Virus record (IMG/VR): IMGVR_UViG_3300045988_103075 | Span: 1-17,516 of that record | DNA from: a virus | Lineage: Duplodnaviria > Heunggongvirae > Uroviricota > Caudoviricetes | Direction: 5' to 3' (one strand) | DNA length: 17,516 nt | Part shown: positions 1-17,516 of the stretch, in pieces | How the letters are laid out: every line of letters begins with the position of its first letter | Numbering within the stretch: the stretch's first letter is position 1 | Program-made: the position numbers and the translations under genes | The notes under the pieces: generated by a model | What the model was told of the DNA's origin: nothing | What the model saw: only the letters and a program-made list of their open reading frames with translations | Databases searched by the model: none

Positions 1-73
1 TGGATACGGTGGAAATGACGCGGGTGCCGTCGTTAATCTCCAGCACCTGCACGCCATGATGATAGTCACTCAT
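1..73 (-). CDS. FI: Tail sheath protein FI, N-terminal 24 codons only (gene continues beyond window start)
   Basis: Reverse complement of 1..73 translates MSDYHHGVQVLEINDGTRVISTVS, matching the N-terminus of P2 tail sheath FI as I recall it. ATG at 73..71 is preceded by GGAG. Not in the ORF track because it is truncated. Confidence 0.8.
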   Translation of the reverse strand, partial: MSDYHHGVQVLEINDGTRVISTVS

Positions 74-160
74 CCGTTTAACTCCGTGGTTAATGGGTGC
101 AACTATTTTCTGTTGTGCAGAGCATGAGACGCTATTTGACCTGGCTGGTCAGTGGATGAA

Positions 161-197
161 ACAACAGATAAAGAAAAGGCGGGCAATTCGCCCGCCT
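161..197 (-). terminator. Rho-independent terminator downstream of the 403..996 cargo gene
   Basis: Perfect inverted repeat GGCGGGC (178..184) / GCCCGCC (190..196) with 5-nt loop AATTC. On the minus strand it is followed by UUUCUUUAUCUG (complement of 161..176). Confidence 0.55.
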
Positions 198-402
198 GTC
201 CTGATTTGAACTCACTCATTTTCCGACTGACAATTTACATAGCCCAAAAGTTATCAAATCTGACGGTCTGCTTTGAACAAGAAGCGGACATTTGCCTGTC
301 AGGGTATATACCGCTCTGCGGTTATTATCCAGAATCAATAATTCATCTGAGTTGGATTACATATAAAACATAGTTACCCCATGAATAACCATTAGCAGAT
401 TA

Positions 403-996
403 TCAATTATGTAAATCTTTTGTTTTATGTTCTTTGGTGTGTTGTGACAACAAATGGCTATAGCGTTTAAGCAAAATATTAGAAAGATTAAGCTCATTCA
501 TGAAGTGTTCTTCTAATAAGTAACCATCAATATCAACTTTAATATCATTACCACTTTTCATCTTCTGTAACGTAGATTTTACACGCTCCAGCAGGATGCT
601 TTGCTCATGGTAATAGTCCATAAGAAGAGTAACATCCTCTTTATCAAGCTTACTTAATTCGCTGAAGTAGGATTTAAACACTTTATCAGTCTGGTTTAAT
701 GCAATCTGTAAGCGAGGCCCCCCTAATGATTTGACATTAATGGCAAAAGGCTCGCCAACAAAATGCTCCGAATTTTCGTCAAAGCCAATATATCTCGTTT
801 TATCAAGAAAAGTGAGAGCGCGATGGTTATTAGCGATTTCATATGCAAACATTGTTCTGATACTGTCCCTCTCAGCCTCCATAGTTATATCATCACGATG
901 ATTTGTATAAAATATATTTCCAACAAAGAGAACCATAGCAAGAATCACTGAACTTGCCTCCCAGTTAATATTTTTTAATCGTCGCTTAGTAAACAT
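403..996 (-). CDS. Hypothetical protein, 197 aa, AT-rich cargo gene with a predicted N-terminal membrane anchor, in the Z/fun slot between G and FI
   Basis: Intact ORF. AAGGTG lies 6 nt upstream of the ATG on the minus strand. Hydrophobic segment SSVILAMVLFVGNIFY follows a basic N-terminus (KRRLK). Sampled lines count about 30% GC against mid-to-upper 50s% in flanking phage genes. No family recognised. Confidence 0.75.
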   Translation of the reverse strand: MFTKRRLKNINWEASSVILAMVLFVGNIFYTNHRDDITMEAERDSIRTMFAYEIANNHRALTFLDKTRYIGFDENSEHFVGEPFAINVKSLGGPRLQIALNQTDKVFKSYFSELSKLDKEDVTLLMDYYHEQSILLERVKSTLQKMKSGNDIKVDIDGYLLEEHFMNELNLSNILLKRYSHLLSQHTKEHKTKDLHN

Positions 997-1217
997 ACCG
1001 CACCTTAATTATCAAAAATATTCCTTCAGTGTTATCTGGTTAGCCTAAACCAAGTCATTAAAGTCTGCAGGATATCATATACATAAAATGTATTGATTAG
1101 AATTTGCACTAATAAAATAATGCTTTACTAAAATCTACTCCAGACACAGAGCGGCCTGTCAGATTAGGCTTTACTCTGTGCCATAGATATGTTTGCTCAC
1201 TCCAGAGATCATACAAC

Positions 1218-1745
1218 TTATTGCGGCATTTCCGGCCATTCAGGATTTGCAGGATCCACACGACTGACCAGAACGCTGTAACGCTCCCATGCATCCAGTC
1301 GGCTACGCTCCTCATCTGTTGCCATGTTCAGTCTGACCGCGCGCTCCAGCGGCAAAATCACGGATTCAGCATCTGCAAGAAGTCTGGCTTTCCGGTTTTC
1401 TGCCTGCTGCAGCAATTCCTCTGCCGTATAAATGCGTTTAATCACTTTGCCGTCCTTAAACATCCAGTTCCCTGAAATGTCCGCCCGTCGGTTAGCAGTA
1501 ATATCCGCCACTTCAACAACACTTAATCCATCCGGTCTGATAGCTGTCACATCCTTTTCCACATAGCGGATGATATTATCTTTGTCGTACGCTATTTTTA
1601 GCGTGTCATCAGCAAAATACTTTTGTTCTTCGTACCAGTTCTTACCATCTTCTGAAAAAAACCAGACAACATCAAAGTCTTTTGTCAATTGATATTGTTC
1701 AACCGTTTTTGGATTACCCGCCGTAATATTTTTTAAATGCTGCAT
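1218..1745 (-). CDS. G: Tail fiber assembly chaperone (P2 gpG-like), 175 aa
   Basis: Protein [14 protein letters not shown]...[13 protein letters not shown] resembles P2 gpG as recalled, same length, sits immediately downstream of H. Confidence 0.9.
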
Positions 1746-1748
1746 AAA

Positions 1749-4508
1749 TTATACCTGCGCCACGTTATACCATGTCCCGTTAATGTATTTCTGAACCGGT
1801 CTGTAATATACACCACCAATGTTATCGGCAGAGTTTGAGCCGGTATCCTGAACAATAATGCCGGAATATACACACCCGGACGGTGCCTGATGTGTCCATG
1901 TCATGCCATTGTTCGCAGGTTTGTATGTGGCAGCACCACCAAGCCGGATATCCCGGACATAGCGGGAATCAAAGTTACCGTAATCCGAGGGATTAACACG
2001 CCCCGTAATATTTATGGTTTTATTACTTTGAATACTTCCCGAGACAAAGCGCATAACATGGACGCTATTAGCATAAACATCCAGATTACCATCACCATTT
2101 TGTTTAAAGCCCGTGTCATTATCACCCAAAACAATCGAATTACCGCCAAGAGCACTGGATGTTCCTATACCCAGAGCACCATTCAATTGACCACCAGATA
2201 ACGGCAGTGCACCGACATCTCCCGCTGTAGGTTTTCGCGTTGTGGTATAAAACTCAGACCAGTCAGCCTCGAATCCGTAACCGTCACGAGCAGAACGATA
2301 AAAAATACCGCCGTTCTTATAATTAACGCGGAACTGGGCGGCGGGACAACTTCCTTCACCGATATTAAAATGAAGAATTAACGTTGATGCCCCACCAGTA
2401 GTTGCGTTATAGGCTCCGCTACTCCAGTTCCACCCAACGGCTTTATCATTCGCAACGGTGTCTCCTGTTTTTCCTGAAGCAAATGCACCAATATTTTTCG
2501 GCGTCAGGTTAATATCTGATGTTCCATCAAACGAAACGTTATTAATTTTACGGGCTGTTTTCAGCTTTGTTGCTGTCGCCGCATTGCCGGACAGTTCACC
2601 AGAAAGGCCAGCACTGAATGTCTGTTTCGCGCCCCATGTCTGGGCTTCGTCAATGATTGGTACTCGTCTTGCTGTGATCGTGCGGCTTCCCGGATTTCCT
2701 GAAATACGCACCATAAAAAATCGGTAGTTCGCTTTACTTACAGTGCTGCGCCATACATGCATTGAGCGCCCCGTACCGGAATCATCACTCGGACCAACTG
2801 CGATGTTTATCAGGTTGCCATCAATGACGCCCCAGTCCATACCGTCGGGAATATTGGTCATATTATCCAGCCTAACGGTTATCAGACTGCCCGGCACAAA
2901 ATCGTAGGTCTGCCAGTCCAGGCTGGTGAGCTTTGCCACAGCACCGCCGATACCCAGATTCAGGGGAAGTGAATACGAGGTGTAGACTTCCCGCCATTCG
3001 CTCCATGAGCTGCCGGTAAAGACGCGCTCAAAGGTGCGGCCTTTAAGGGTTGTACCTGTTCCGGCAGTTGTATAACGCTGCCATACATTAACACCATCAA
3101 ACCGCCTCAACACTTCCAGAATGCCGAGTACAGTCACGCCGTTTCCGTCCAGTACTGGACCGTTGGTCGCTTTACCTGTAACGCTGTAAATACCTGGTGA
3201 GGTTACATCATTCAAATCACCTTCGTAATAACGACTCTCTGACTGATGACCGACTCTTAACCACGGTTCCCACTGCGGATTTGATGCATCCCAGCTTGCC
3301 GCAAGGCAGCGGACATACATATTTCCACGGCGAGTGGTATAACGTTGCGTTCTTCCATAATTTCCGCCTTCGAGGATCTCAAGCATCCCCTGAGCAAAGC
3401 CGCCTTCCTCTGGATAATTGCGTTCATATGAAGCTATAGCCGAGCTACTGTTACGCCATAAACCAAGATGTTCGGCGGCTCCAAGCGTATTCAGGTCTAT
3501 AGTCGTACTCAAAGGGCGGGTAGCTGATTGAGTGTGACGCCATATGCCCCACGGACCATCAGAGCCATTCCACTTATTGGCGAGTCTGCGTATGTATACA
3601 TTGCCGTCTCTCGTGGTGAAGCGTTGCGTACCTGCAAAATTGCCGGCAGCAAAAACCTCAAGCACACCGACAGCATTATCTTCCGGGAAATTTTTCTCCA
3701 GTGTTGCGTTAGTTGAGGTAGTTTTAGACCAGATTCCCAGATAAGCCTTAACGGGACCAAATGTATTCAGATCAGCATCAAGCGGCATTTCGCCATTGTT
3801 TTTCATAAACGTCAGGCTGGTAACGCCAACATTGTCCAGAAAAGCGTCCTTATCTGGAATATCGCCACCGTTCTGGTCTTTCTGCAGACGTTTCTCAGCA
3901 TTGTCATAGGCTGCTTTTACTGCCTTTGGCGTTGCAGCCTGCTTTTCACTGGTGCTGTTTGTTGCACTGCTTAACTGAGTAAAACCTTTTTCTGTCAGCG
4001 TGGCGTCAGGATGGCGGCGGGACTGCTCATGCTCTGCGATTTTGTCATCGACGTAATCCTGCGTCGCCATCACTGTGCTGGCATCAATACTCAGCTCAAC
4101 GGACGCCACGTTGCTGAGAATAATAACCATGCGGCAGGTCTGCGCACGTCCGGAGCCTTCAGCCAGTTCTGGCTTATAGCTTTCTGCCATGTTGGATACC
4201 GCAATCAGTGTTCCGGCATCGTCATACAGACCAAGCTCACGCATCCAGAAGCCGCCCACTTCTGGCGGAACAACCAGTTCAGCCACGATATAGTTTTTAT
4301 TCTTGTTATCCACACTGACTTTATTCAGTGCATGACGCCAGACTTCATGCACCAGTTTCGTCTGACCGGCATCCGGCACCGGCAATTGGCCATTACCGTC
4401 ACCCACAGCCATTGCAGACAGGTTTACTTTTTTCCCGCCGGGAACAGTGGCGGCTGCCAGCTTCGCGGCTCCGGCAGTAGTGATAACGGTTTTAAATTTC
4501 GTGCTCAT
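1749..4508 (-). CDS. H: Tail fiber protein (P2 gpH-like), 919 aa, conserved N-terminus with a long divergent repeat-containing C-terminal region
   Basis: N-terminus MSTKFKTVITTAGAAKLAAA... matches the P2 gpH N-terminal baseplate-attachment region as recalled. The gene is followed by G. Confidence 0.9.
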   Translation of the reverse strand: MSTKFKTVITTAGAAKLAAATVPGGKKVNLSAMAVGDGNGQLPVPDAGQTKLVHEVWRHALNKVSVDNKNKNYIVAELVVPPEVGGFWMRELGLYDDAGTLIAVSNMAESYKPELAEGSGRAQTCRMVIILSNVASVELSIDASTVMATQDYVDDKIAEHEQSRRHPDATLTEKGFTQLSSATNSTSEKQAATPKAVKAAYDNAEKRLQKDQNGGDIPDKDAFLDNVGVTSLTFMKNNGEMPLDADLNTFGPVKAYLGIWSKTTSTNATLEKNFPEDNAVGVLEVFAAGNFAGTQRFTTRDGNVYIRRLANKWNGSDGPWGIWRHTQSATRPLSTTIDLNTLGAAEHLGLWRNSSSAIASYERNYPEEGGFAQGMLEILEGGNYGRTQRYTTRRGNMYVRCLAASWDASNPQWEPWLRVGHQSESRYYEGDLNDVTSPGIYSVTGKATNGPVLDGNGVTVLGILEVLRRFDGVNVWQRYTTAGTGTTLKGRTFERVFTGSSWSEWREVYTSYSLPLNLGIGGAVAKLTSLDWQTYDFVPGSLITVRLDNMTNIPDGMDWGVIDGNLINIAVGPSDDSGTGRSMHVWRSTVSKANYRFFMVRISGNPGSRTITARRVPIIDEAQTWGAKQTFSAGLSGELSGNAATATKLKTARKINNVSFDGTSDINLTPKNIGAFASGKTGDTVANDKAVGWNWSSGAYNATTGGASTLILHFNIGEGSCPAAQFRVNYKNGGIFYRSARDGYGFEADWSEFYTTTRKPTAGDVGALPLSGGQLNGALGIGTSSALGGNSIVLGDNDTGFKQNGDGNLDVYANSVHVMRFVSGSIQSNKTINITGRVNPSDYGNFDSRYVRDIRLGGAATYKPANNGMTWTHQAPSGCVYSGIIVQDTGSNSADNIGGVYYRPVQKYINGTWYNVAQV

Positions 4509-6302: not shown

Positions 6303-6934
6303 AGAGGTCCCCCTGTTGTGCCGCCGCTGTCGCCGGGGTGTTTATGGGTATGCAGTACCTTACCGTTTGATGAGAGTTCACCGCCGGTATGCGCGATGTT
6401 GCCGCGCATCGTCCCGCCCTTCTGCACTTCCAGCGTGCCGGTAGTCAGTTTGTTGGTGCAGACCACTTCCGGTGTGTCCAGGGTGACGCGGGTTGATGCT
6501 TTCACCGTGACCACCGGCACCGTGGCAGTAACAGAATCAGAAGCCATCACGCTGGCCGTTTTAATTCCGCTTGCCGTGAGTGCACTGGTTTCGGGTTCAT
6601 ACTCAATCACCGCCCCGTCAGGGAAACGGATATGCAGGGCATCCTCCGACGCAGACGGCGCGGGGTTATCACCGGAATAAATCCCCGGCAGAACGAACGC
6701 CGTGTCGAGTTCACCGCCCACGGCCAGAATCAGCACCTGCTCCCCCACGGAAGGTGCCCACCATGTGCGCGAACGTCCGGCGCGATGGGTCAGCCACTGA
6801 AGCCAGTCGGTACACATGCCGCCGGTCTGCACACGGCAGCGACCGGCGTTAAGGTCGGTTTCGACGATAATGCCGGTGCGAATCATGTTGCGCAGTACGC
6901 GCGCGAGTTCCTGAATACTTGATAATGTGCTCAT
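6299..6934 (-). CDS. V: Baseplate spike / assembly protein (P2 gpV-like), 211 aa
   Basis: Track ORF 6299..7003 trimmed to the ATG at 6934..6932, giving MSTLSSIQELARVLRNMIRTG..., which matches the P2 gpV N-terminus and length as recalled. No strong SD seen upstream. Confidence 0.85.
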   Translation of the reverse strand: MSTLSSIQELARVLRNMIRTGIIVETDLNAGRCRVQTGGMCTDWLQWLTHRAGRSRTWWAPSVGEQVLILAVGGELDTAFVLPGIYSGDNPAPSASEDALHIRFPDGAVIEYEPETSALTASGIKTASVMASDSVTATVPVVTVKASTRVTLDTPEVVCTNKLTTGTLEVQKGGTMRGNIAHTGGELSSNGKVLHTHKHPGDSGGTTGGPL

Positions 6935-6980
6935 ATGACAATAATGGGGAACATATGCTCGAAAAACTATTGCAACCCGT

Positions 6981-6998
6981 TGTATCATTTTCGGCACA
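6981..6998. promoter_or_regulatory. Perfect TGT-N12-ACA dyad, candidate Ogr/Delta-type late-activator site in the V upstream region
   Basis: TGT (6981..6983), 12 nt, ACA (6996..6998). This is the dyad described for P2/P4 late promoters centred near -55. Geometry is imperfect: the centre is only about 55 nt from the V start codon. Confidence 0.35.
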
Positions 6999-7017
6999 AC
7001 CAAGAAGGAGCCGAAGC

Positions 7018-7761
7018 ATGGATAAATATCAAATCTGGGAAAAACAAAAAGACACCATCGCCCATAAAGAATATTTAAAAATTTCCGACACCAATTTACT
7101 TGGACATATACACATTGCCAATTATGAGGTGATTCAAAGTGAATTAAGCAAATTCAACTCTCCTGAAATTGTATTCCACTACTCACTTAATAGAAATGAA
7201 TTAAAAAAACAGCACATAAATATATCAAGACATTTTCTCAACTATATCTCCTCAGCATTATCATTTAGAGATTCAACGCGTAATCTACATAAAATCAATG
7301 TATTAAATATTGATGATATTACCAATAAATCCAGAGAAATCATCAATGAAGAATTTTTAAAAAATCCAATCATAAAATTAATGGAAGATTTAAGAAACAT
7401 CCTAACCCATCAAAAAATGATCTCCCCATTAATATCATCATTTATGCACCTCCAGAAAAAAATAAACATACACGGATTTGCATTTAAGATTGAAACCATA
7501 CTGGAGAATGACCGGCTTTCTGGTAAATCAAAAGAATACCTGAAGTCAACAGAACAAAAAAATTTATTCATCTTGCCGATAATAGAGGAATACCAATACA
7601 CAACTCTTAAATACCAGCACTGGCTTTTAGCTTGTATCTACAATGCTCATCAAAACACATATCCAGAATATTGGGAAGCAAGAAAAAACATAATGGACGT
7701 CTGGGGTGGAGATATCCAACTAATACCTGAAGAGAGTACCCTCACTTATTTGACCAGATAA
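7018..7761 (+). CDS. Hypothetical protein, 247 aa, AT-rich cargo gene between V and S on the opposite strand, with a HEPN-like R-N-x3-H motif
   Basis: ATG at 7018 is preceded by AAGGAG (7005..7010) with a 7-nt spacer. A sampled line counts about 27% GC. Motif RNILTH at codons 126..131 (7393..7410). Stop TAA at 7759..7761. No family recognised. Confidence 0.75.
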   Translation: MDKYQIWEKQKDTIAHKEYLKISDTNLLGHIHIANYEVIQSELSKFNSPEIVFHYSLNRNELKKQHINISRHFLNYISSALSFRDSTRNLHKINVLNIDDITNKSREIINEEFLKNPIIKLMEDLRNILTHQKMISPLISSFMHLQKKINIHGFAFKIETILENDRLSGKSKEYLKSTEQKNLFILPIIEEYQYTTLKYQHWLLACIYNAHQNTYPEYWEARKNIMDVWGGDIQLIPEESTLTYLTR

Positions 7762-7794
7762 CAATCTAATTAGCTCACAAACATAAGACACCTT

Positions 7795-7826
7795 GGCCAC
7801 GATATTTTATCGTGGCCTTATATGAT
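7795..7826 (+). terminator. Putative intrinsic terminator after the 7018..7761 cargo gene
   Basis: 9-bp inverted repeat GGCCACGAT (7795..7803) / ATCGTGGCC (7809..7817) with 5-nt loop, followed by TTATATGAT. The U-tract is weak. Confidence 0.4.
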
Positions 7827-7974
7827 AAAGCGACTACCTTCGATGAGTCCTTATAACTCTCATCCACTGCACATTTTCAAGTTACAATTAAAGTTCATTT
7901 AGTTGAAATATAAAAAGGATGCCGCAAGAGGATAATGGCGATATTTCATCAATAAGGCGCAAGAAATGGCACAA

Positions 7975-9140: not shown

Positions 9141-9420
9141 TGAGTAACCTCGTGATGGTTTTCTCGCGCTGTGCTTCACGCTTCGCGGCGTTCTCCAGTT
9201 CCTGACGCAGTGCCACCTGCGCCAGCTCGTTTTTGTCTGCTCTGGTGAGGGCAACATGAAGCTGATTTTTCAGCATGGTGATGGTCGTCTGCTGCCCGCT
9301 GGCGACGTTGTTCGCCCTGTCCAGCGAGGCGCGCAGGCTGGCGTTTTCATGCTTCGCCAGAAACAGCCCCGCCACCGCCAGCGATAACAACACGACCAGC
9401 ACAATCATCAGCTTTGACAT
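8995..9420 (-). CDS. lysB: Rz-type inner-membrane spanin (P2 LysB-like), 141 aa
   Basis: N-terminal transmembrane segment LMIVLVVLLSLAVAGLFLA followed by a charged, coiled-coil-like periplasmic domain. Position after lysA. Confidence 0.85.
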   Translation of the reverse strand: MSKLMIVLVVLLSLAVAGLFLAKHENASLRASLDRANNVASGQQTTITMLKNQLHVALTRADKNELAQVALRQELENAAKREAQREKTITRLLNENEDFRRWYGADLPDAVRRLHQRPACTDASDCPQRLPESEPLPDAGQ

Positions 9421-9830
9421 GGTTCCCGCCCCTCAAAACGCTGACGGCAGGCTTTACGTATCAGCCGGAAGAACACCGACGCCACAAGATAAATCAGCGC
9501 GGTAAAAATCCACCCGGCAGCGACCAGCGCGATAAACGTCGCCACCACCACCAGAGCCGCCGCCCGTCTGCGCCACGGCACCGGCTGCAAAAACAGCGAC
9601 GTGACAATCTTCACGGCCAGCGATTCCGGCGGCAGCTCCCGCCCGTAGCGCTCCAGTACATACTCAGTGGCATACACGCCGACACCACCGGCAACCACAC
9701 AGATAACCGTCGCCAGAATCGCCCAGGTGGCGACAAAACTGACGGCCACGCTCTGCGGGTAAATCAGGGACAGTGCCAGCATCAGCGCCAGCGACACGTT
9801 CAGCATCAGTGAAAGGGATAATTTCTTCAT
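9408..9830 (-). CDS. lysA: Lysis-timing membrane protein (P2 LysA-like), 140 aa
   Basis: Multi-pass hydrophobic protein located between K and lysB, as in P2. Confidence 0.8.
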   Translation of the reverse strand: MKKLSLSLMLNVSLALMLALSLIYPQSVAVSFVATWAILATVICVVAGGVGVYATEYVLERYGRELPPESLAVKIVTSLFLQPVPWRRRAAALVVVATFIALVAAGWIFTALIYLVASVFFRLIRKACRQRFEGREPCQS

Positions 9831-9844
9831 GGTGTTTACTCCGT

Positions 9845-10342
9845 TTAAGCCGGTACGCCGCCAGCGGTACGCCAGACGGTGACCAGTTTTTCCAGTGAAT
9901 GCTCACGCTGACCATAACCGGCACCCGGCAGGGACGCCCAGATATTGCGACAGCGTGAAATGGCGCGCTCAATGCGTCCCGCCCGGATGTCATCCAGTGC
10001 ACCGCGTTCGCGGATCAACTGAATGGCGAGCCTGTCCTGTGACAACGGACTGAAATCCGGCAGGGCAAGCTGTTTGCGGTAATGCGGCCAGAACAGGTAA
10101 AGCTGCTGATAGCGACCGGAGGCCGTGGATTTTTCACCGCGACGGTTAAACACCTTCGCCGGTCGGCCATGCGCGAACGGGTGGTCGCTGTAGTCGGTGA
10201 AGATTTCCGGCTTCCCGTCCAGTCCGGTGACTATCACGTCATAGCCCCGGTTTTTCGTCAGCGGATGATTTGCCGTCCCTTCGGACACGGCCAGCATGTC
10301 GAGAAAGGCGGCGATATTCTGATGCGTGTTAATTACCGGCAT
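9845..10342 (-). CDS. K: Endolysin / lysozyme (P2 gpK-like), 165 aa
   Basis: Protein MPVINTHQNIAAFLDMLAVSEGT... resembles P2 gpK as recalled. Start overlaps the Y stop (TAATG). Confidence 0.9.
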   Translation of the reverse strand: MPVINTHQNIAAFLDMLAVSEGTANHPLTKNRGYDVIVTGLDGKPEIFTDYSDHPFAHGRPAKVFNRRGEKSTASGRYQQLYLFWPHYRKQLALPDFSPLSQDRLAIQLIRERGALDDIRAGRIERAISRCRNIWASLPGAGYGQREHSLEKLVTVWRTAGGVPA

Positions 10343-10623
10343 TACGGTTTCCCCCTGCCCTTAAAGCGGCGCTGAATGGCAATCTCAATCACCTGATAAC
10401 CGGCGATACCCAGCATGGAGCCGATGCCGCACACCGCAGGCAGTGACAGGTCAGGAAACTGCACCAGAACAACACCCGCAACCATCGAGACAAAACCACC
10501 GAGCAACATGCGCCCGATAAACAGACGCGGGGTGATGGGTTCACCACCGGCAAGCACCTTGCCGACAACAATCAGCACCCCAATCATGAAAAGCGACAGG
10601 ACGCTTTTTTCTTCTGCTGTCAT
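10342..10623 (-). CDS. Y: Holin (P2 gpY-like), 93 aa
   Basis: Small membrane protein with hydrophobic helices, immediately upstream of the endolysin. Confidence 0.85.
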   Translation of the reverse strand: MTAEEKSVLSLFMIGVLIVVGKVLAGGEPITPRLFIGRMLLGGFVSMVAGVVLVQFPDLSLPAVCGIGSMLGIAGYQVIEIAIQRRFKGRGKP

Positions 10624-10626
10624 GCG

Positions 10627-10830
10627 TTACTCCCACAGATTGACAGTTTCAGCCACGGGCGCGGTCTGAACGTCGGGCAGTTCGACGGCGGTGCCGTGCG
10701 GCAGCACCGCACCCAGTTCAGCCATTCCCGGATTTGCGGCGAGCACGGTCTCAACCACGCCCTCAGTGCGCCCGTAATACCGGACACAGATGGCGTCGAG
10801 CGTGTCGCCCTGTAGCGCAAAGGTCTTCAT
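10627..10830 (-). CDS. X: Tail protein X (P2 gpX-like), 67 aa
   Basis: Track ORF 10627..10899 trimmed to the ATG at 10830 (MKTFALQGDTLDAICVRYYG...), which overlaps the L stop as TGATG. Length matches P2 gpX as recalled. Confidence 0.8.
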   Translation of the reverse strand: MKTFALQGDTLDAICVRYYGRTEGVVETVLAANPGMAELGAVLPHGTAVELPDVQTAPVAETVNLWE

Positions 10831-11339
10831 CAGATTTGACTCACGATACAGCGCGGCTTGTCCTGGATGCGCGCCACTGCCCAGCGCATATCCCGCCACA
10901 GCTCATCAATGGTGCTGTCAATGCTGTCGGCCTTCTTGTCGCCTTTCGCACTGGCATCCACGCCGCGATAACGCTCATAAAGCGATGCGGTCGCCATCGC
11001 ACACACGGCGCGCTCGTAGTAAAAAACTTTGATGCTTTCACCGTCGATGTCGTCCGCCGGGACGTCCGCCAGACGCGTAAAACCGGCAGCAATTTTCTGT
11101 TCGCGGTACTCGTACAGCTCCGCATTCGTCTCCGCCATGCCTGACTTGATGGCCTCACGCAGACGGGCCGGGGCGACGGTCTGCTCAAGGCGCATACGTT
11201 CCCGGACGCGCTTCGGGTCGATATCGGGAAAAAAGAACGTGTTTTTAATCACCGGCTCGTCGCCTGCCGGTTGCGGGATGACCACCGTACCCTCACAGGA
11301 TACGGGAGCCTCCTTTCGCGGAATAATCAGCGTCATCAT
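10830..11339 (-). CDS. L: Capsid completion protein (P2 gpL-like), 169 aa
   Basis: Track ORF trimmed to the ATG at 11339 (MMTLIIPRKEAPVS...). Length and position match P2 gpL as recalled. Confidence 0.85.
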   Translation of the reverse strand: MMTLIIPRKEAPVSCEGTVVIPQPAGDEPVIKNTFFFPDIDPKRVRERMRLEQTVAPARLREAIKSGMAETNAELYEYREQKIAAGFTRLADVPADDIDGESIKVFYYERAVCAMATASLYERYRGVDASAKGDKKADSIDSTIDELWRDMRWAVARIQDKPRCIVSQI

Positions 11340-11438
11340 GACTACCTCTGAAAAGTCGGGCGGTGGACGCCGGTACAGTGTCAGGTGATTCACCCTCACT
11401 GACCGGCGTGCCGCCCTGGCGCGGGGCGCATTCGGTTG

Positions 11439-12182
11439 TTAACTGGCTTTCTTTTTCGGGCGTCCACGTTTTGCCGGTGTCGCACTCCGGGTCTTACGCG
11501 GGGCGCGGGTGGCTGCTTTGGGCTGCGGCTCCGGCTTCGGTTTCAGCTCCCGCTCCAGTCGTTCAATCTCTTTTTTGACGCCTGCCTGACAGTCGAGCTG
11601 TGTCGCACGTTGCAGGTGAGCCAGCGCACCGGCGGCATCACCACCGTCACGCAGAAACAGACCGGTGATTTTGTGCAGCTTTGCGCGCACTTCATCAGGC
11701 ATGTCAGCAGTGGCGGTCAGTTCAAGGGTCTCCGTCAGCAGGCGGATATCCACGGATTCACCGGCAGCGTGAGCGCGCATGGCCGCGAGCGCCACCTCCT
11801 CGGTGAACATGTACGGCGGGGTGCGGCGGTGTTTACCCGGCATGGTCAGACCGTACTTCAGGGCATAACGGGCAATCTCCAGCGCACCAGCAATATCGCC
11901 GGTATCCAGACGCCACAGCATGACCGTCATCAGAATGTCATCCTGTGCGCCTTTGCCCTGCTCCAGCACGCCGTTCACCCACGGCAACCAGAACGGCAGC
12001 AGTTCGCGTTTTTTCGCGGCCTTCAGCTCTTTTGAATAAATCGCTTTCAGTGTGCGCTGGTCTGCGGCCAGCTTGACCAGCATCTGCTCATAGACAGTTG
12101 CATGTCGCAGCGGGGCGGCGTCCCGCTGCGCGGTCATCGCTGCCGAGACCCGCATCATGTGGCGCTGTGCGGGACTCGTCAT
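11439..12182 (-). CDS. M: Terminase endonuclease (small) subunit (P2 gpM-like), 247 aa
   Basis: Protein MTSPAQRHMMRVSAAMTAQRD... with a basic Lys/Arg/Pro-rich C-terminal tail. Length and position match P2 gpM as recalled. Confidence 0.9.
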   Translation of the reverse strand: MTSPAQRHMMRVSAAMTAQRDAAPLRHATVYEQMLVKLAADQRTLKAIYSKELKAAKKRELLPFWLPWVNGVLEQGKGAQDDILMTVMLWRLDTGDIAGALEIARYALKYGLTMPGKHRRTPPYMFTEEVALAAMRAHAAGESVDIRLLTETLELTATADMPDEVRAKLHKITGLFLRDGGDAAGALAHLQRATQLDCQAGVKKEIERLERELKPKPEPQPKAATRAPRKTRSATPAKRGRPKKKAS

Positions 12183-14172: not shown

Positions 14173-14345
14173 TGTCAGGAGTCCTGAATAGTGATTAGAG
14201 GAGTCACATGTCGGCATCAGTTTCCCGACGATGCGCATCCTCCGCCATCAGTCCCGGATGGCTTATCACTGACACAACAGCACCTTAGCGAATCGCAGGG
14301 CGCGACTCAGTAGCCTTGCCGTGTATTCATCACGGCGAGGTATTC

Positions 14346-16118
14346 ATGACCATCACCACAGACACCACTCTTTTACACGACCCGCGTCGTCAGGCGGCGC
14401 TGCTGTACTGGCAGGGGTTTTCCGTGCCGCAGATTGCCGCCATGTTGCAGATGAAACGCCCGACGGTGCAGAGCTGGAAACAGCGCGACGGCTGGGACAG
14501 CGTTGCCCCCATCAGCCGTGTCGAAATGAGCCTGGAAGCGCGGCTGACCCAGCTCATCATCAAACCGCAGAAAACCGGCGGTGACTTCAAGGAAATTGAC
14601 CTGCTGGGACGCCAGATTGAACGACTGGCACGGGTAAACCGCTACAGCCAGACCGGCAACGAGGCAGACCTTAATCCGAACGTCGCTAACCGCAACAAAG
14701 GCGGGCGTCGCAAACCGAAAAAGAATTTTTTCAGTGACGAAGCCATCGAAAAGCTGGAGCAGATTTTCTTTGAGCAGTCTTTCGACTATCAGTTGCACTG
14801 GTATCGCGCCGGGCTTGAGCACCGCATCCGCGATATCCTGAAATCCCGCCAGATTGGCGCAACGTTTTATTTTTCCCGCGAGGCGCTGCTGCGCGCCCTG
14901 AAAACCGGTCATAACCAGATTTTTCTGTCGGCCAGTAAAACGCAGGCGTATGTGTTCCGCGAATACATCATCGCCTTTGCCCGTCTGGTGGACGTTGACC
15001 TTACCGGTGACCCGATTGTCCTGGGCAATAACGGCGCAAAACTGATTTTTCTCGGCACCAACTCCAACACCGCGCAGAGCCATAACGGCGACCTGTACGT
15101 CGATGAGATTTTCTGGATCCCGAATTTTCAGGTACTGCGTAAGGTGGCATCAGGTATGGCCTCACAGAGTCACCTGCGTTCGACCTATTTCTCCACCCCG
15201 TCCACGCTGGCGCACGACGCCTACCCGTTCTGGTCGGGTGAACTGTTCAACCGGGGACGTGCCAGCGCCGCCGAACGTGTGGAAATCGACGTCAGTCATA
15301 ACGCCCTTGCCAGCGGGCTTCTCTGTGCGGACGGCCAGTGGCGGCAGATTGTCACCATTGAGGACGCCCTGAAAGGCGGCTGCACGCTGTTCGACATTGA
15401 GCAACTCAAACGCGAAAACAGCGCCGACGATTTTAAAAACCTGTTCATGTGTGAATTTGTTGACGACAAGGCGTCGGTGTTCCCGTTCGAGGAGCTGCAA
15501 CGCTGCATGGTCGACACGCTGGAAGAATGGGAAGACTATGCGCCGTTTGCCGCCAATCCGTTCGGCTCACGCCCGGTCTGGATTGGTTACGACCCGTCAC
15601 ACCGTGGCGACAGCGCCGGATGCGTGGTACTGGCACCGCCGATGGTTGCCGGTGGCAAATTCAGAATACTTGAGCGTCACCAGTGGAAAGGCATGGACTT
15701 TGCCACCCAGGCTGAATCCATCCGCAAACTCACCGAAAAATACAACGTCGAATACATCGGTATTGATGCCACCGGCCTCGGTGTCGGCGTGTTCCAGCTC
15801 GTGCGCTCGTTCTATCCTGCCGCGCGCGACATCCGCTACACGCCGGAAATGAAAACCGCAATGGTGCTCAAGGCAAAAGACGTTATCCGCCGTGGCTGTC
15901 TGGAATATGACGTCAGCGCCACCGACATCACCAGCTCGTTTATGGCTATCCGCAAGACCATGACCAGCAGCGGACGCAGCGCCACTTATGAGGCCAGCCG
16001 CAGCGAGGAAGCCAGCCACGCCGACCTCGCCTGGGCGACCATGCACGCCCTGTTAAATGAGCCACTCACCGCCGGTATCAGCACCCCGCTGACATCCACC
16101 ATTCTGGAGTTTTACTGA
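14346..16118 (+). CDS. P: Terminase ATPase (large) subunit (P2 gpP-like), 590 aa
   Basis: Track ORF trimmed to the ATG at 14346 (MTITTDTTLLHDPRRQAALLYWQGFSVPQIA...), preceded by GGCGAGG. Length matches P2 gpP as recalled. Divergent from O. Confidence 0.9.
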   Translation: MTITTDTTLLHDPRRQAALLYWQGFSVPQIAAMLQMKRPTVQSWKQRDGWDSVAPISRVEMSLEARLTQLIIKPQKTGGDFKEIDLLGRQIERLARVNRYSQTGNEADLNPNVANRNKGGRRKPKKNFFSDEAIEKLEQIFFEQSFDYQLHWYRAGLEHRIRDILKSRQIGATFYFSREALLRALKTGHNQIFLSASKTQAYVFREYIIAFARLVDVDLTGDPIVLGNNGAKLIFLGTNSNTAQSHNGDLYVDEIFWIPNFQVLRKVASGMASQSHLRSTYFSTPSTLAHDAYPFWSGELFNRGRASAAERVEIDVSHNALASGLLCADGQWRQIVTIEDALKGGCTLFDIEQLKRENSADDFKNLFMCEFVDDKASVFPFEELQRCMVDTLEEWEDYAPFAANPFGSRPVWIGYDPSHRGDSAGCVVLAPPMVAGGKFRILERHQWKGMDFATQAESIRKLTEKYNVEYIGIDATGLGVGVFQLVRSFYPAARDIRYTPEMKTAMVLKAKDVIRRGCLEYDVSATDITSSFMAIRKTMTSSGRSATYEASRSEEASHADLAWATMHALLNEPLTAGISTPLTSTILEFY

Positions 16119-17152
16119 TGAGCAAGAAAAAAGGGAAAACACCGCAACCTGCGGCAAAAACAATGACCGCCAGCGCCCCGAAAATGGAGGCATTCACCTT
16201 TGGTGAGCCGGTGCCGGTACTCGACCGCCGTGACATTCTGGATTACGTCGAGTGCATCAGTAACGGCAGATGGTATGAGCCACCGGTCAGCTTTACCGGT
16301 CTGGCAAAAAGCCTGCGTGCTGCCGTGCATCACAGCTCACCGATTTACGTCAAACGTAATATTCTGGCTTCAACGTTTATCCCGCACCCGTGGCTTTCCC
16401 AGCAGGATTTCAGCCGCTTTGTGCTGGATTTTCTGGTGTTCGGTAATGCGTTTCTGGAAAAGCGTTACAGCACCACCGGTAAGGTCATCAGACTGGAAAC
16501 CTCACCGGCAAAATATACCCGCCGTGGCGTGGAGGAGGATGTTTACTGGTGGGTGCCGTCCTTCAACGAGCCGACAGCCTTCGCGCCCGGCTCCGTGTTT
16601 CACCTGCTGGAGCCTGATATTAATCAGGAGCTGTACGGCCTGCCGGAATATCTCAGCGCCCTTAACTCTGCCTGGCTGAATGAGTCGGCCACGCTGTTCC
16701 GCCGCAAGTATTACGAAAACGGCGCACATGCCGGATACATCATGTACGTCACCGATGCCGTGCAGGACCGCAACGATATCGAAATGCTTCGCGAAAACAT
16801 GGTTAAGTCGAAAGGCCGCAATAACTTTAAAAATCTGTTTCTCTATGCCCCGCAGGGGAAAGCCGACGGCATTAAAATTATCCCCCTCAGTGAAGTGGCG
16901 ACGAAGGACGATTTTTTTAATATCAAAAAAGCCAGCGCCGCTGACCTGCTGGACGCACACCGCATCCCCTTTCAGTTGATGGGTGGCAAGCCGGAGAACG
17001 TCGGGTCACTGGGTGATATTGAGAAAGTGGCAAAGGTCTTTGTCCGCAATGAGCTAATCCCGTTACAGGACAGGATTCGGGAAATAAACGGCTGGCTCGG
17101 CCAGGAGGTCATCCGCTTTAAAAACTACTCACTGGACACTGACAACGGCTGA
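16118..17152 (+). CDS. Q: Portal protein (P2 gpQ-like), 344 aa
   Basis: Protein MSKKKGKTPQPAAKTMTA... Start overlaps the P stop (TGATG). Length matches P2 gpQ as recalled. Confidence 0.9.
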   Translation: MSKKKGKTPQPAAKTMTASAPKMEAFTFGEPVPVLDRRDILDYVECISNGRWYEPPVSFTGLAKSLRAAVHHSSPIYVKRNILASTFIPHPWLSQQDFSRFVLDFLVFGNAFLEKRYSTTGKVIRLETSPAKYTRRGVEEDVYWWVPSFNEPTAFAPGSVFHLLEPDINQELYGLPEYLSALNSAWLNESATLFRRKYYENGAHAGYIMYVTDAVQDRNDIEMLRENMVKSKGRNNFKNLFLYAPQGKADGIKIIPLSEVATKDDFFNIKKASAADLLDAHRIPFQLMGGKPENVGSLGDIEKVAKVFVRNELIPLQDRIREINGWLGQEVIRFKNYSLDTDNG

Positions 17153-17157
17153 ACATC

Positions 17158-17180
17158 GCCGCCTGCGGGCGGCTTTTTTA
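17158..17180 (+). terminator. Rho-independent terminator after Q
   Basis: GCCGCC (17158..17163), loop TGCG, GGCGGC (17168..17173), followed by TTTTTT (17174..17179). Confidence 0.6.
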
Positions 17181-17322
17181 CACCCCCGTCATCACGCCCT
17201 CACACGCTCATCACCGCACAAAAAATCCCGCAGACACACCAACGCCCCAGCAGGCCAAGTAAACGCCTTCACGACGCGCTCAGACGCTGAAAAAATAAAA
17301 TCAGCACCACCGCCAGCGCGCA

Positions 17323-17341
17323 GTGCTTTCCCCGCCTCGCC
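17323..17341. other. P2-type cos, the 19-nt cohesive-end sequence
   Basis: Reverse complement of 17323..17341 is GGCGAGGCGGGGAAAGCAC, which I recall as the P2 cohesive end. It lies next to Q as in the P2 map. Identity is from memory. Confidence 0.7.
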
Positions 17342-17471
17342 CGCCCGCTTCATGGGGCGGTTTTAATGCAGTTGCATGAGTACGTTGAATCCTCGCTAGC
17401 TGTGACGTAAAGCAATGAGGACGCATAACTTTGACACATGCAAAACCATGCACCTGATACATTCATAGTTA

Positions 17472-17516
17472 CTGTCTCTTATACACATCTCCGAGCCCAC
17501 GAGACATCTCAGGATC
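17472..17516. other. Illumina Nextera adapter (Tn5 mosaic end plus read-2 adapter), a sequencing artefact and not genomic
   Basis: Exact CTGTCTCTTATACACATCT (17472..17490) followed by CCGAGCCCACGAGAC (17491..17505), then 8 nt resembling an index and ATC at the window end. Confidence 0.9.

Follow-up and report, generated by a model that had tools for sequence, protein, structure and literature searches.

What occupies the right edge of this contig, a working packaging site of the P2 type or a remnant of one, and which genes should follow it, are the questions raised by the stretch that separates the portal gene from the end of the record. The window, as the whole stretch of 17,516 nt is called here, represents that half of a P2-like (Peduovirus) genome which holds the late genes. 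Peduovirus P22H1 is 98.7% identical to the window, 93% of the length of which is covered, and many other P2-like phages are 96-98% identical to it. The interval 17315-17465 is very probably a complete P2-like cos in its joined form, followed by a contig end which falls before the known Q-A hotspot and leaves a probable PDC-S06 cargo out. The feature is a textbook P2-type cos beside the published Q-A hotspot, and as such is already known. Added by this analysis are the exact coordinates of the cos sub-elements, a cargo prediction, and statistics on the conservation of the distal ATGCA words.

The cohesive end and its gene context

The late ORFs from G to Q are all open and full-length, and the cognate terminase is encoded, in both its subunits (gpP and gpM), by the same element that carries the cos. 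Gene M (11439..12182, minus strand), assigned as an ORF and by synteny, codes for the 247-aa small, or endonuclease, subunit. Its DNA is ~97.7% identical to the syntenic gene of KFu022, annotated as 'terminase endonuclease subunit', and a 247-aa protein of L007, encoded at the same position, matches PF05944 (Phage_term_smal). gpM is presumed to be the protein which recognizes cos. Gene P (14346..16118, plus strand, within an ORF spanning 14316-16118) codes for the large, ATPase subunit; the ATG start at 14346 was adopted from the KFu022 annotation (590 aa), and in the P2 record NC_001895 P is annotated adjacent to Q. At loci of identical synteny the terminase subunits are matched by the Pfam families Terminase_6N/6C and Phage_term_smal.

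Gene Q (16118..17152, plus strand) encodes the portal protein, identical to P2 gpQ at 342 of 343 residues, and the equivalent gene is annotated as portal protein in the matching phages and genomes. It is followed on the same strand by tQ, a rho-independent terminator formed by a stem-loop (GCCGCC-TGCG-GGCGGC, 17158-17173) and a run of Ts (TTTTTT, 17174-17179). tQ was recovered by a terminator scan of the near-identical stretch of KFu022, and P2 annotates tQ at the equivalent spot. The two other accessory ORFs of the window have no match in Pfam or PADLOC. The tail-fibre protein (919 aa) does not lead back to the source assembly, its exact sequence being listed in 690 index blocks. On the whole, the element is apparently a standard and intact Peduovirus prophage, endowed with a standard cos.

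On the plus strand, positions 17323-17341 read gtgctttccccgcctcgcc, the reverse complement of which is GGCGAGGCGGGGAAAGCAC. The original prediction recognized in this 19-mer the cohesive end of P2, and the match is indeed exact: the 19-nt cohesive-end sequence (cosN; 17323..17341, minus strand) coincides at 19 of 19 positions with bases 1-19 of NC_001895, annotated as 'cosL; left cohesive end'. In a pattern search, GGCGAGGCGGGGAAAGCAC was found at 17323-17341 with 0 mismatches, and this is the sole match within the window even when up to 3 mismatches are allowed; the chance expectation is 0.01 per window (a match in 1 of 200 shuffles). The location that had been anticipated, behind the Q terminator as in P2, is also borne out, the 19-mer beginning 143 nt beyond tQ and 170 nt beyond the stop codon of Q. 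The order Q, tQ, cos in the window is the mirror image of the P2 map, in which cosL (1-19) is followed by tQ (160-181) and by Q on the opposite strand (187-1221).

In three linear phage records (P24E6b, P24B2 and vB_YpM_476A) the first base is the one aligned to position 17341, as expected if the left cohesive end has its 5' terminus there. Nicks are predicted at 17322/17323 on the plus strand and at 17342/17341 on the minus strand, the polarity being deduced from the annotation of phage 186 and from established knowledge of P2. Being 19 nt apart, the predicted nicks would leave 5' overhangs. A standard cos of this type provides a natural start coordinate for the prophage genome.

Conserved core, spacer and distal words

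The reference cos regions of P2, 186 and P4, reconstructed by joining right and left ends, were aligned with the window. The 19-mer is identical in P2 and exhibits 2 differences in 186, and the flanks align. A core of 65 bp (17315-17379), including 8 bp at the Q side (AGCGCGCA, 17315-17322), the 19-mer, and 38 bp at the hotspot side, is common to the window, P2, 186, PSP3 and the satellite P4, and is the only part of the site held in common with the satellite. The interval corresponds to the '55-bp core' of cos attributed to Ziermann and Calendar 1990 in PMC5694545. Homology breakpoints were mapped in a sample spread over the 2187 E. coli records which match 17153-17471. In most P2-like prophages of E. 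coli, the homology to the window breaks off at 17370-17379, and short core-only matches cover 17315-17379. One core-only match resides in a P2-like prophage which hosts the retron Ec48 between Q and cos, and another reverse transcriptase beyond cos. Both cos flanks have been replaced in this prophage, and the similarity to the window is restricted to the 8 + 19 + 38 bp of the core. The possibility that short core-only E. coli matches denote P4-like satellites was dropped, as the one opened turned out to be this P2-like prophage, with retron cargo on both sides.

A terminator-like G+C hairpin (CCGCCC-N8-GGGCGG followed by TTTTA; 17341..17365, plus strand), detected by terminator scan and by sequence inspection, starts on the last base of the 19-mer. 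According to the alignments, the hairpin is kept in P2 and P4, and is weaker in 186. The idea that the 17341-17360 interval is a conserved RNA or DNA structure was abandoned, because 186 lacks compensatory changes which would keep the pairing; the hairpin is therefore taken either as a part of the protein-recognized core, or as an incidental terminator. Adjacent to it lies the proximal inverted pair ATGCA-GT-TGCAT (17366..17377). ATGCA is found at offset 25 from the 19-mer in 61 of 64 non-redundant right arms, and the inverted pair is present also in 186, P4 and PSP3. The minimal cos fragment would be ~125 bp in size, a figure which was not used as evidence here; the P4 cosmid literature found does not give a minimal size.

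Conservation beyond the core was assessed on a set of 80 IMG/VR loci encoding portals at least 99% identical to that of the window. The 19-mer occurs in 79 of them, in 76 exactly. The 79 loci exhibit as many as 61 different sequences at offsets 39-130 beyond the 19-mer. Information averages 1.53 bit in the right core, as opposed to 0.25 bit at offsets 40-90, which fall in an unconserved spacer of 57 bp (17380..17436). Though variable in sequence, the spacer is constrained in length: in 60 of 65 arms, offset 96-98 is where the distal pair begins.

Past the spacer, at 17437..17465, the window carries distal phased repeats, CATGCAAAACCATGCA, and a degenerate third copy. The words read ATGCA at 17438-17442 and 17448-17452, and ATTCA, the degenerate one, at 17461-17465. 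Information climbs again to 1.0-2.0 bit over CATGCAAA-N3-ATGCA; this profile is anchored on the motif, and unanchored offset counts hence provide the fair test. Among the 64 non-redundant arms, ATGCA is found at offset 96-98 in 51, at 106-108 in 45, and at 117-120 in 23. Pairs of the type ATGCA-N5-6-ATGCA, searched by allowing up to 1 mismatch per word, start at offset 85-110 in 63 of the 64 arms, as against 0-3 arms in each of six control windows located further out. All the conserved elements of the cos of the window match the consensus, spacing included. The same distal ATGCA layout is found in P2, 186, P4 and the Salmonella phage PSP3. The phased words are kept in place also in the prophage having both cos flanks replaced. 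In P4 the distal pair is located on the arm facing psu, and the P4 hotspot (gop, beta, cII) on the other arm. This distribution indicates that the ATGCA words travel with cos, and neither with the cargo nor with the promoter of the cargo.

The likeness to known systems is graded. P2 shares with the window the cohesive end and the order Q, tQ, cos and accessory locus. Near-identity is seen in the Q-side arm and in the initial ~30 nt of the right arm, and ATGCA words are found at the same offsets; beyond ~30 nt the right arm of P2 is unrelated to that of the window, with the exception of the distal ATGCA words. 186 (Eganvirus) has the same cos architecture, and a cohesive end, GGCGTGGCGGGGAAAGCAT, different at 2 of 19 positions. 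Two blocks of the window, the proximal CATGCAACTGCATTAAAACC and the distal CAGGTGCAT-N5-TTGCATG, resemble 186 more than P2. In PSP3, also an Eganvirus, ATGCA is located at offsets 25, 97, 107 and 116. The satellite P4 (NC_001609) has an identical 19-mer, the same 65-bp core, and a distal ATGCA pair at offset 97. Its variable defence hotspot (the gop/beta/cII side) lies on the cos arm opposite to that of the P2-type hotspot, and the arm with the ATGCA words faces psu. P4 is packaged by the P2 terminase, as stated in PMC9122126, and the shared cos elements fit this notion.

More distant sites exhibit analogies in plan. The cos of lambda (cosQ-cosN-cosB) and that of the Pseudomonas phage phiCTX have no sequence relationship to the cos of the window. 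The overhang is 19 nt here, as opposed to 21 nt in phiCTX, and measures 12 nt in lambda. In lambda, the working plan is the same, a nicking site being flanked on one side, at a fixed distance, by repeated short words. These repeats bind the small terminase subunit, according to PMC4669245. The phiCTX record annotates the repeats R3-R6 and IHF sites around cos, and by our reading of the sequence CTGCR words are found in a comparable layout in its right arm. Repeats flanking cos have been thus already described in this phage family, and the distal ATGCA element is probably known, at least in outline. The words themselves are probably familiar to specialists, and the cos conservation map (core, fixed-length spacer, phased ATGCA) is likely to be known to them as well. 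The map may nonetheless be of help in designing P2/P4 cosmid delivery vectors.

A route to packaging can be sketched by analogy with P2 and with cos phages in general. The cos of the window is in the joined form, which is the state found in a prophage or in circular replicating DNA. Monomeric circles are reported to be the packaging substrate preferred by P2. The terminase formed by gpM and gpP would bind cos on joined DNA, nick it at 17322/17323 (plus strand) and 17342/17341 (minus strand), 19 nt apart, and thus generate ends with protruding 5' GGCGAGGCGGGGAAAGCAC, the DNA being then threaded through the gpQ portal. Recognition would probably involve the 65-bp core and, on the hotspot side, the phased ATGCA words with offsets of 25/32 and 97/107(/120). 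TGCA-containing words may represent contacts of the small subunit, arranged as an inverted pair at the nick site and two to three direct copies spaced by one helical turn. The two groups of words would lie 72 bp, or ~seven helical turns, apart, separated by a spacer fixed in length and free in sequence. On these grounds the distal repeats are proposed as a terminase-binding element, and terminase contacts at the ATGCA words would be the analogue of the cosB of lambda. A bolder reading, that the phased words (at 97, 107 and ~117-120) are a not-yet-defined gpM array, analogous to cosB, which sets the inner boundary of cargo exchange and makes up the minimal packaging signal of satellites, is put forward as an unlikely one.

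The hotspot beyond cos and its predicted cargo

The interval extending from gpQ/cos to gpA has been described as a highly polymorphic defence hotspot, for which 18,150 E. coli loci display 1,650 arrangements of genes, and which has old and tin as classical P2 occupants (Rousset et al. 2022, PMC9122126). The original prediction had placed a variable accessory locus past cos, and the data match the published picture: the 79 loci with portals at least 99% identical feature 61 distinct right arms. In the 60 loci in which A is within reach, it lies 907 to 3670 nt away from cos, and the median GC content of the first kb beyond cos is 0.37 in the 79-locus set. In the P2 record, old and tin are found beyond cos, and the old-tin transcript starts ~150 nt from cosR and runs away from cos; 186 carries on that side the tum/orf97 SOS operon.

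Beyond the last conserved cos element, genuine sequence goes on in the window for ~20 nt, and it stops 201 nt ahead of the first cargo codon of matching genomes. Cargo genes of the hotspot are absent from the window, in which only the allele-specific leader 17380-17471 is present, and neither old nor tin resides in the window. The expectation of a tin/old hotspot was thus right as to the locus and not as to the genes: P2 carries old and tin beyond cos, whereas the flank of the window is linked to a single AAA_13/PDC-S06 ATPase gene. The suggestion that the cargo locus is missing from the assembly holds for this contig, which is cut by adapter ~200 nt short of where matching genomes have the first cargo gene.

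The cargo to be expected can be read from the last 92 genuine bases (17380-17471), as these are allele-specific. The 17280-17471 region is matched at 95% identity or more, over its full length, in 20 of 5,426 complete E. coli genomes. These 20 genomes are exactly those which match, at 98.4-100%, the 2.6 kb that follow the flank in KFu022, and flank and cargo matches abut in the coordinates compared. The terminal 25-mer of the genuine sequence was found in two metagenome contigs, both of which run on into the same gene, with 9 and 21 mismatches over 2.9 kb; it gave no match in an exact scan of one-genome-per-species contigs. The human-gut contig OZZD01001396 (3,868 bp, coverage 9.6) has 0 mismatches to the window over 224 nt (17248-17471). 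Altogether, all the 22 other sequences found with this flank (the 20 E. coli genomes and the two metagenome contigs) carry one AAA_13/PDC-S06 gene. The order in the matching genomes is Q, cos, cargo, A, where the cargo is a single gene, coding for a 739-aa protein annotated as 'AAA family ATPase', and A encodes the replication endonuclease.

The 739-aa protein is matched by the PADLOC candidate PDC-S06 (E = 7e-253) and by Pfam AAA_13 (E = 6.5e-102), and its residues 457-734 by the PADLOC PrrC model (E = 2e-14). Walker A, ABC-signature and Walker B motifs are present, and the C-terminal motif RYINRGSH is invariant in homologues which are only 51-64% identical. PrrC and RloC combine an ABC/Rad50-like ATPase with a C-terminal HEPN nuclease, which has an Rx4-6H motif and cleaves tRNA anticodons (PMC3710099, PMC3874168). 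RYINRGSH fits the Rx4-6H pattern of these nucleases, a resemblance seen at the level of the protein sequence. Sequence searches with the 739-aa protein revealed no PDB or NCBIfam match. PDC-S06 does not figure among the validated P2-hotspot systems in the section of PMC9122126 consulted, and occurs in the literature found only as a PADLOC annotation or prediction.

Since the last 92 bases mark one particular hotspot allele, the cargo left out is most probably a single gene, transcribed away from cos and followed by A, which would encode the 739-aa AAA_13 ATPase (PDC-S06) with its PrrC/RloC-like C-terminus. The prediction depends on the near-identity of the flank, as a flank only 84% identical is followed by a gene for a Fic protein. 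Given the frequent recombination at the hotspot, the prediction is moreover statistical in nature. As the flank identifies the hotspot allele, it yields, without further sequencing, a testable prediction of a candidate defence gene.

The end of the contig

The Nextera mosaic end CTGTCTCTTATACACATCT is found at 17472-17490 as an exact match, with 0 expected by chance. It is followed by CCGAGCCCACGAGAC (17491-17505), by the index ATCTCAGG (17506-17513) and by the bases ATC (17514-17516). The whole 17472..17516 segment (plus strand) is Nextera adapter read-through, not biological, and should be trimmed from the record; we take its layout to be that of standard Illumina read-through, and the index to be N715. 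Genuine sequence stops accordingly at 17471, exactly 130 nt past the 19-mer, which is where the original prediction had set the adapter cut. Probably the assembler, on its way to the hotspot, met with Nextera adapter where the transposase had cut, at 17471. The other end of the contig lies 73 nt inside the FI sheath gene, and carries no adapter.

Different circumstances could account for such an end. It had been suggested that the template was packaged linear virion DNA, and that the end reflects a physical DNA terminus or a step in coverage at cos. The end is indeed close to cos (130 nt), and annealed cohesive ends can at times allow assemblers to bridge the site. Yet both predicted nick positions are crossed without interruption, the 130 nt past cos are 100% identical to integrated prophages, and at 17471 the sequence joins a Tn5 mosaic end, the mark of an insertion by the transposase and not of a natural end; the contig end is therefore technical. 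The opposite end of the contig falls inside the FI sheath gene, not at cos, and a virion template would be moreover expected to yield one contig of ~31-33 kb. An origin of the end from virion DNA is thus regarded as extremely improbable. That the 19-mer is a relic, left in a defective prophage devoid of a working packaging site, is slightly less remote, though still very unlikely. Many E. coli P2-like prophages are decayed: as an example, strain E302 has frameshifted capsid and terminase genes, and in CP043406 an IS-type transposase gene sits beside the capsid gene, where the scaffold and terminase genes are expected. The visible part of the element is, in turn, limited to 17.5 kb. Against decay argue the open and full-length G-to-Q ORFs, the 98.7% identity to phage P22H1, the 342 of 343 residues shared with P2 gpQ, and the agreement of every conserved cos element, and of its spacing, with the consensus.

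The remaining two explanations concern the break at 17471. The assembly graph may have branched there, either because more than one P2-like element or strain in the sample shared cos and flank, or because the cargo differs from PDC-S06. E. coli genomes host up to 5 places matching the region, the hotspot is extremely polymorphic, and on its left the contig ends within a conserved tail gene, free of adapter, as would be found at a repeat boundary. However, the contig proceeds for 92 nt beyond the end of the shared core at 17379, into allele-specific sequence, and the 22 of 22 independent sequences with this flank are collinear past 17471, which makes a branch caused by a second element less likely. 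The uninterrupted 17.4-kb late region also speaks against the sample containing a second close relative, and a branch is considered rather unlikely on the whole. Alternatively, sequencing depth may have been low in the AT-rich cargo, the read-through adapter having been left untrimmed, and the hotspot may be present in the sample, either in another contig or unassembled. This is a tenable explanation, to which a little less than an even chance is assigned. Nextera libraries under-represent very AT-rich DNA, the contig does end in adapter, and in matching genomes GC falls from ~0.60 to 0.25-0.33, starting at the equivalent of ~17380-17470 and for 2.4 kb. On the other hand, assembly of this contig did proceed across a 24-30% GC island (~7100-7500) and a 31-38% GC stretch (300-1100). 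AT-richness alone is hence insufficient to explain the break, and drop-out of AT-rich DNA was downgraded as its sole cause. The 9.6x human-gut contig, in which the 224 nt free of mismatches are joined to the cargo, shows how a neighbouring contig would look.

A possible recombination boundary beside cos and the adjoining cargo

The late genes of the window differ from those of the prophage of E. coli strain KFu022 (L001) by about 2.3% up to position 17263. From 17264 to 17471, no mismatches to the same prophage are found over 208 nt, where about 5 would be expected at that level of divergence. The abrupt change suggests that a recombination boundary lies immediately on the Q side of cos, near 17264. 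Such a boundary would mean that the same module of cos and cargo is here linked to another late-gene backbone. The predicted cargo gene of the PDC-S06 family lies outside the window, and is found in the KFu022 prophage at 9393-11612.

A short contig from a human gut metagenome (ENA OZZD01001396, positions 1-3868; 3.9 kb, 9.6x coverage) carries the same flank, with 0 mismatches to window positions 17248-17471 over the 224 nt compared. The matched flank is followed by the PDC-S06 ATPase gene and, judging by its extent of 3868 bp, the contig runs on into gene A. This contig might adjoin that of the window and derive from the same or a sister sample.

Relatives of the PDC-S06 protein reside in 4 of the 80 IMG/VR P2-like loci whose portals are at least 99% identical to that of the window (L052, L041, L038 and L088, the last a partial match). 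Protein identities range from 51 to 72%, and the cos flanks preceding these genes differ. This distribution makes the ATPase family a recurrent occupant of the hotspot, present in several diverged alleles. No experimental validation of this family was found.

In the P2-like prophage of NZ_AP022245.1 (locus L091, 1289-5278), a retron Ec48, made of a reverse transcriptase and a membrane effector, is inserted between the portal gene Q and cos, and a second reverse transcriptase is located on the opposite side of cos. Both sides of cos can therefore bear cargo, and what then remains is limited to the core of 65 bp and the phased ATGCA words.

Variable intervals among the tail genes

The interval between tail genes S and V contains an AT-rich island (7004-7974), with a GC content of 24-30% at approximately 7100-7500, and corresponds to the orf30 slot of P2. 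Its ORF of 280 aa with a TTG start (6919-7761, plus strand), oriented opposite to the late genes, had no match in Pfam and PADLOC scans. In contrast to the window, two P2-like loci (CP043406.1 and L008) feature an S-V gap of just 67 nt, and the island thus looks like a further accessory insertion.

The G-FI interval, the Z/fun accessory slot of P2, hosts a 197-aa ORF (403-996, minus strand; GC 31-38%), which similarly had no match in Pfam and PADLOC scans. A 197-aa gene is found at the equivalent position in CP043406.1, and the 181-aa gene call made in the same interval of L008 shares its end coordinate. The tail-fibre gene H (1749-4508, minus strand) encodes 919 aa, and is longer than P2 H (about 669 aa). 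The exact 919-aa protein is very widespread: the assembly collection lists it in 690 index blocks.

The left contig end and a disrupted prophage

The FI tail-sheath gene is cut by the left contig end, which lies 73 nt into the gene (1-73, minus strand); this stretch translates by eye to MSDYHHGVQVLEINDG... In contrast to the right end, the left end bears no adapter.

In the otherwise near-identical prophage of CP043406.1 (locus L007, 1-2220), a gene encoding rve and Mu-transposase C-terminal domains directly adjoins the capsid gene, in the place expected for the scaffold and terminase genes. A mobile element has apparently disrupted this prophage.
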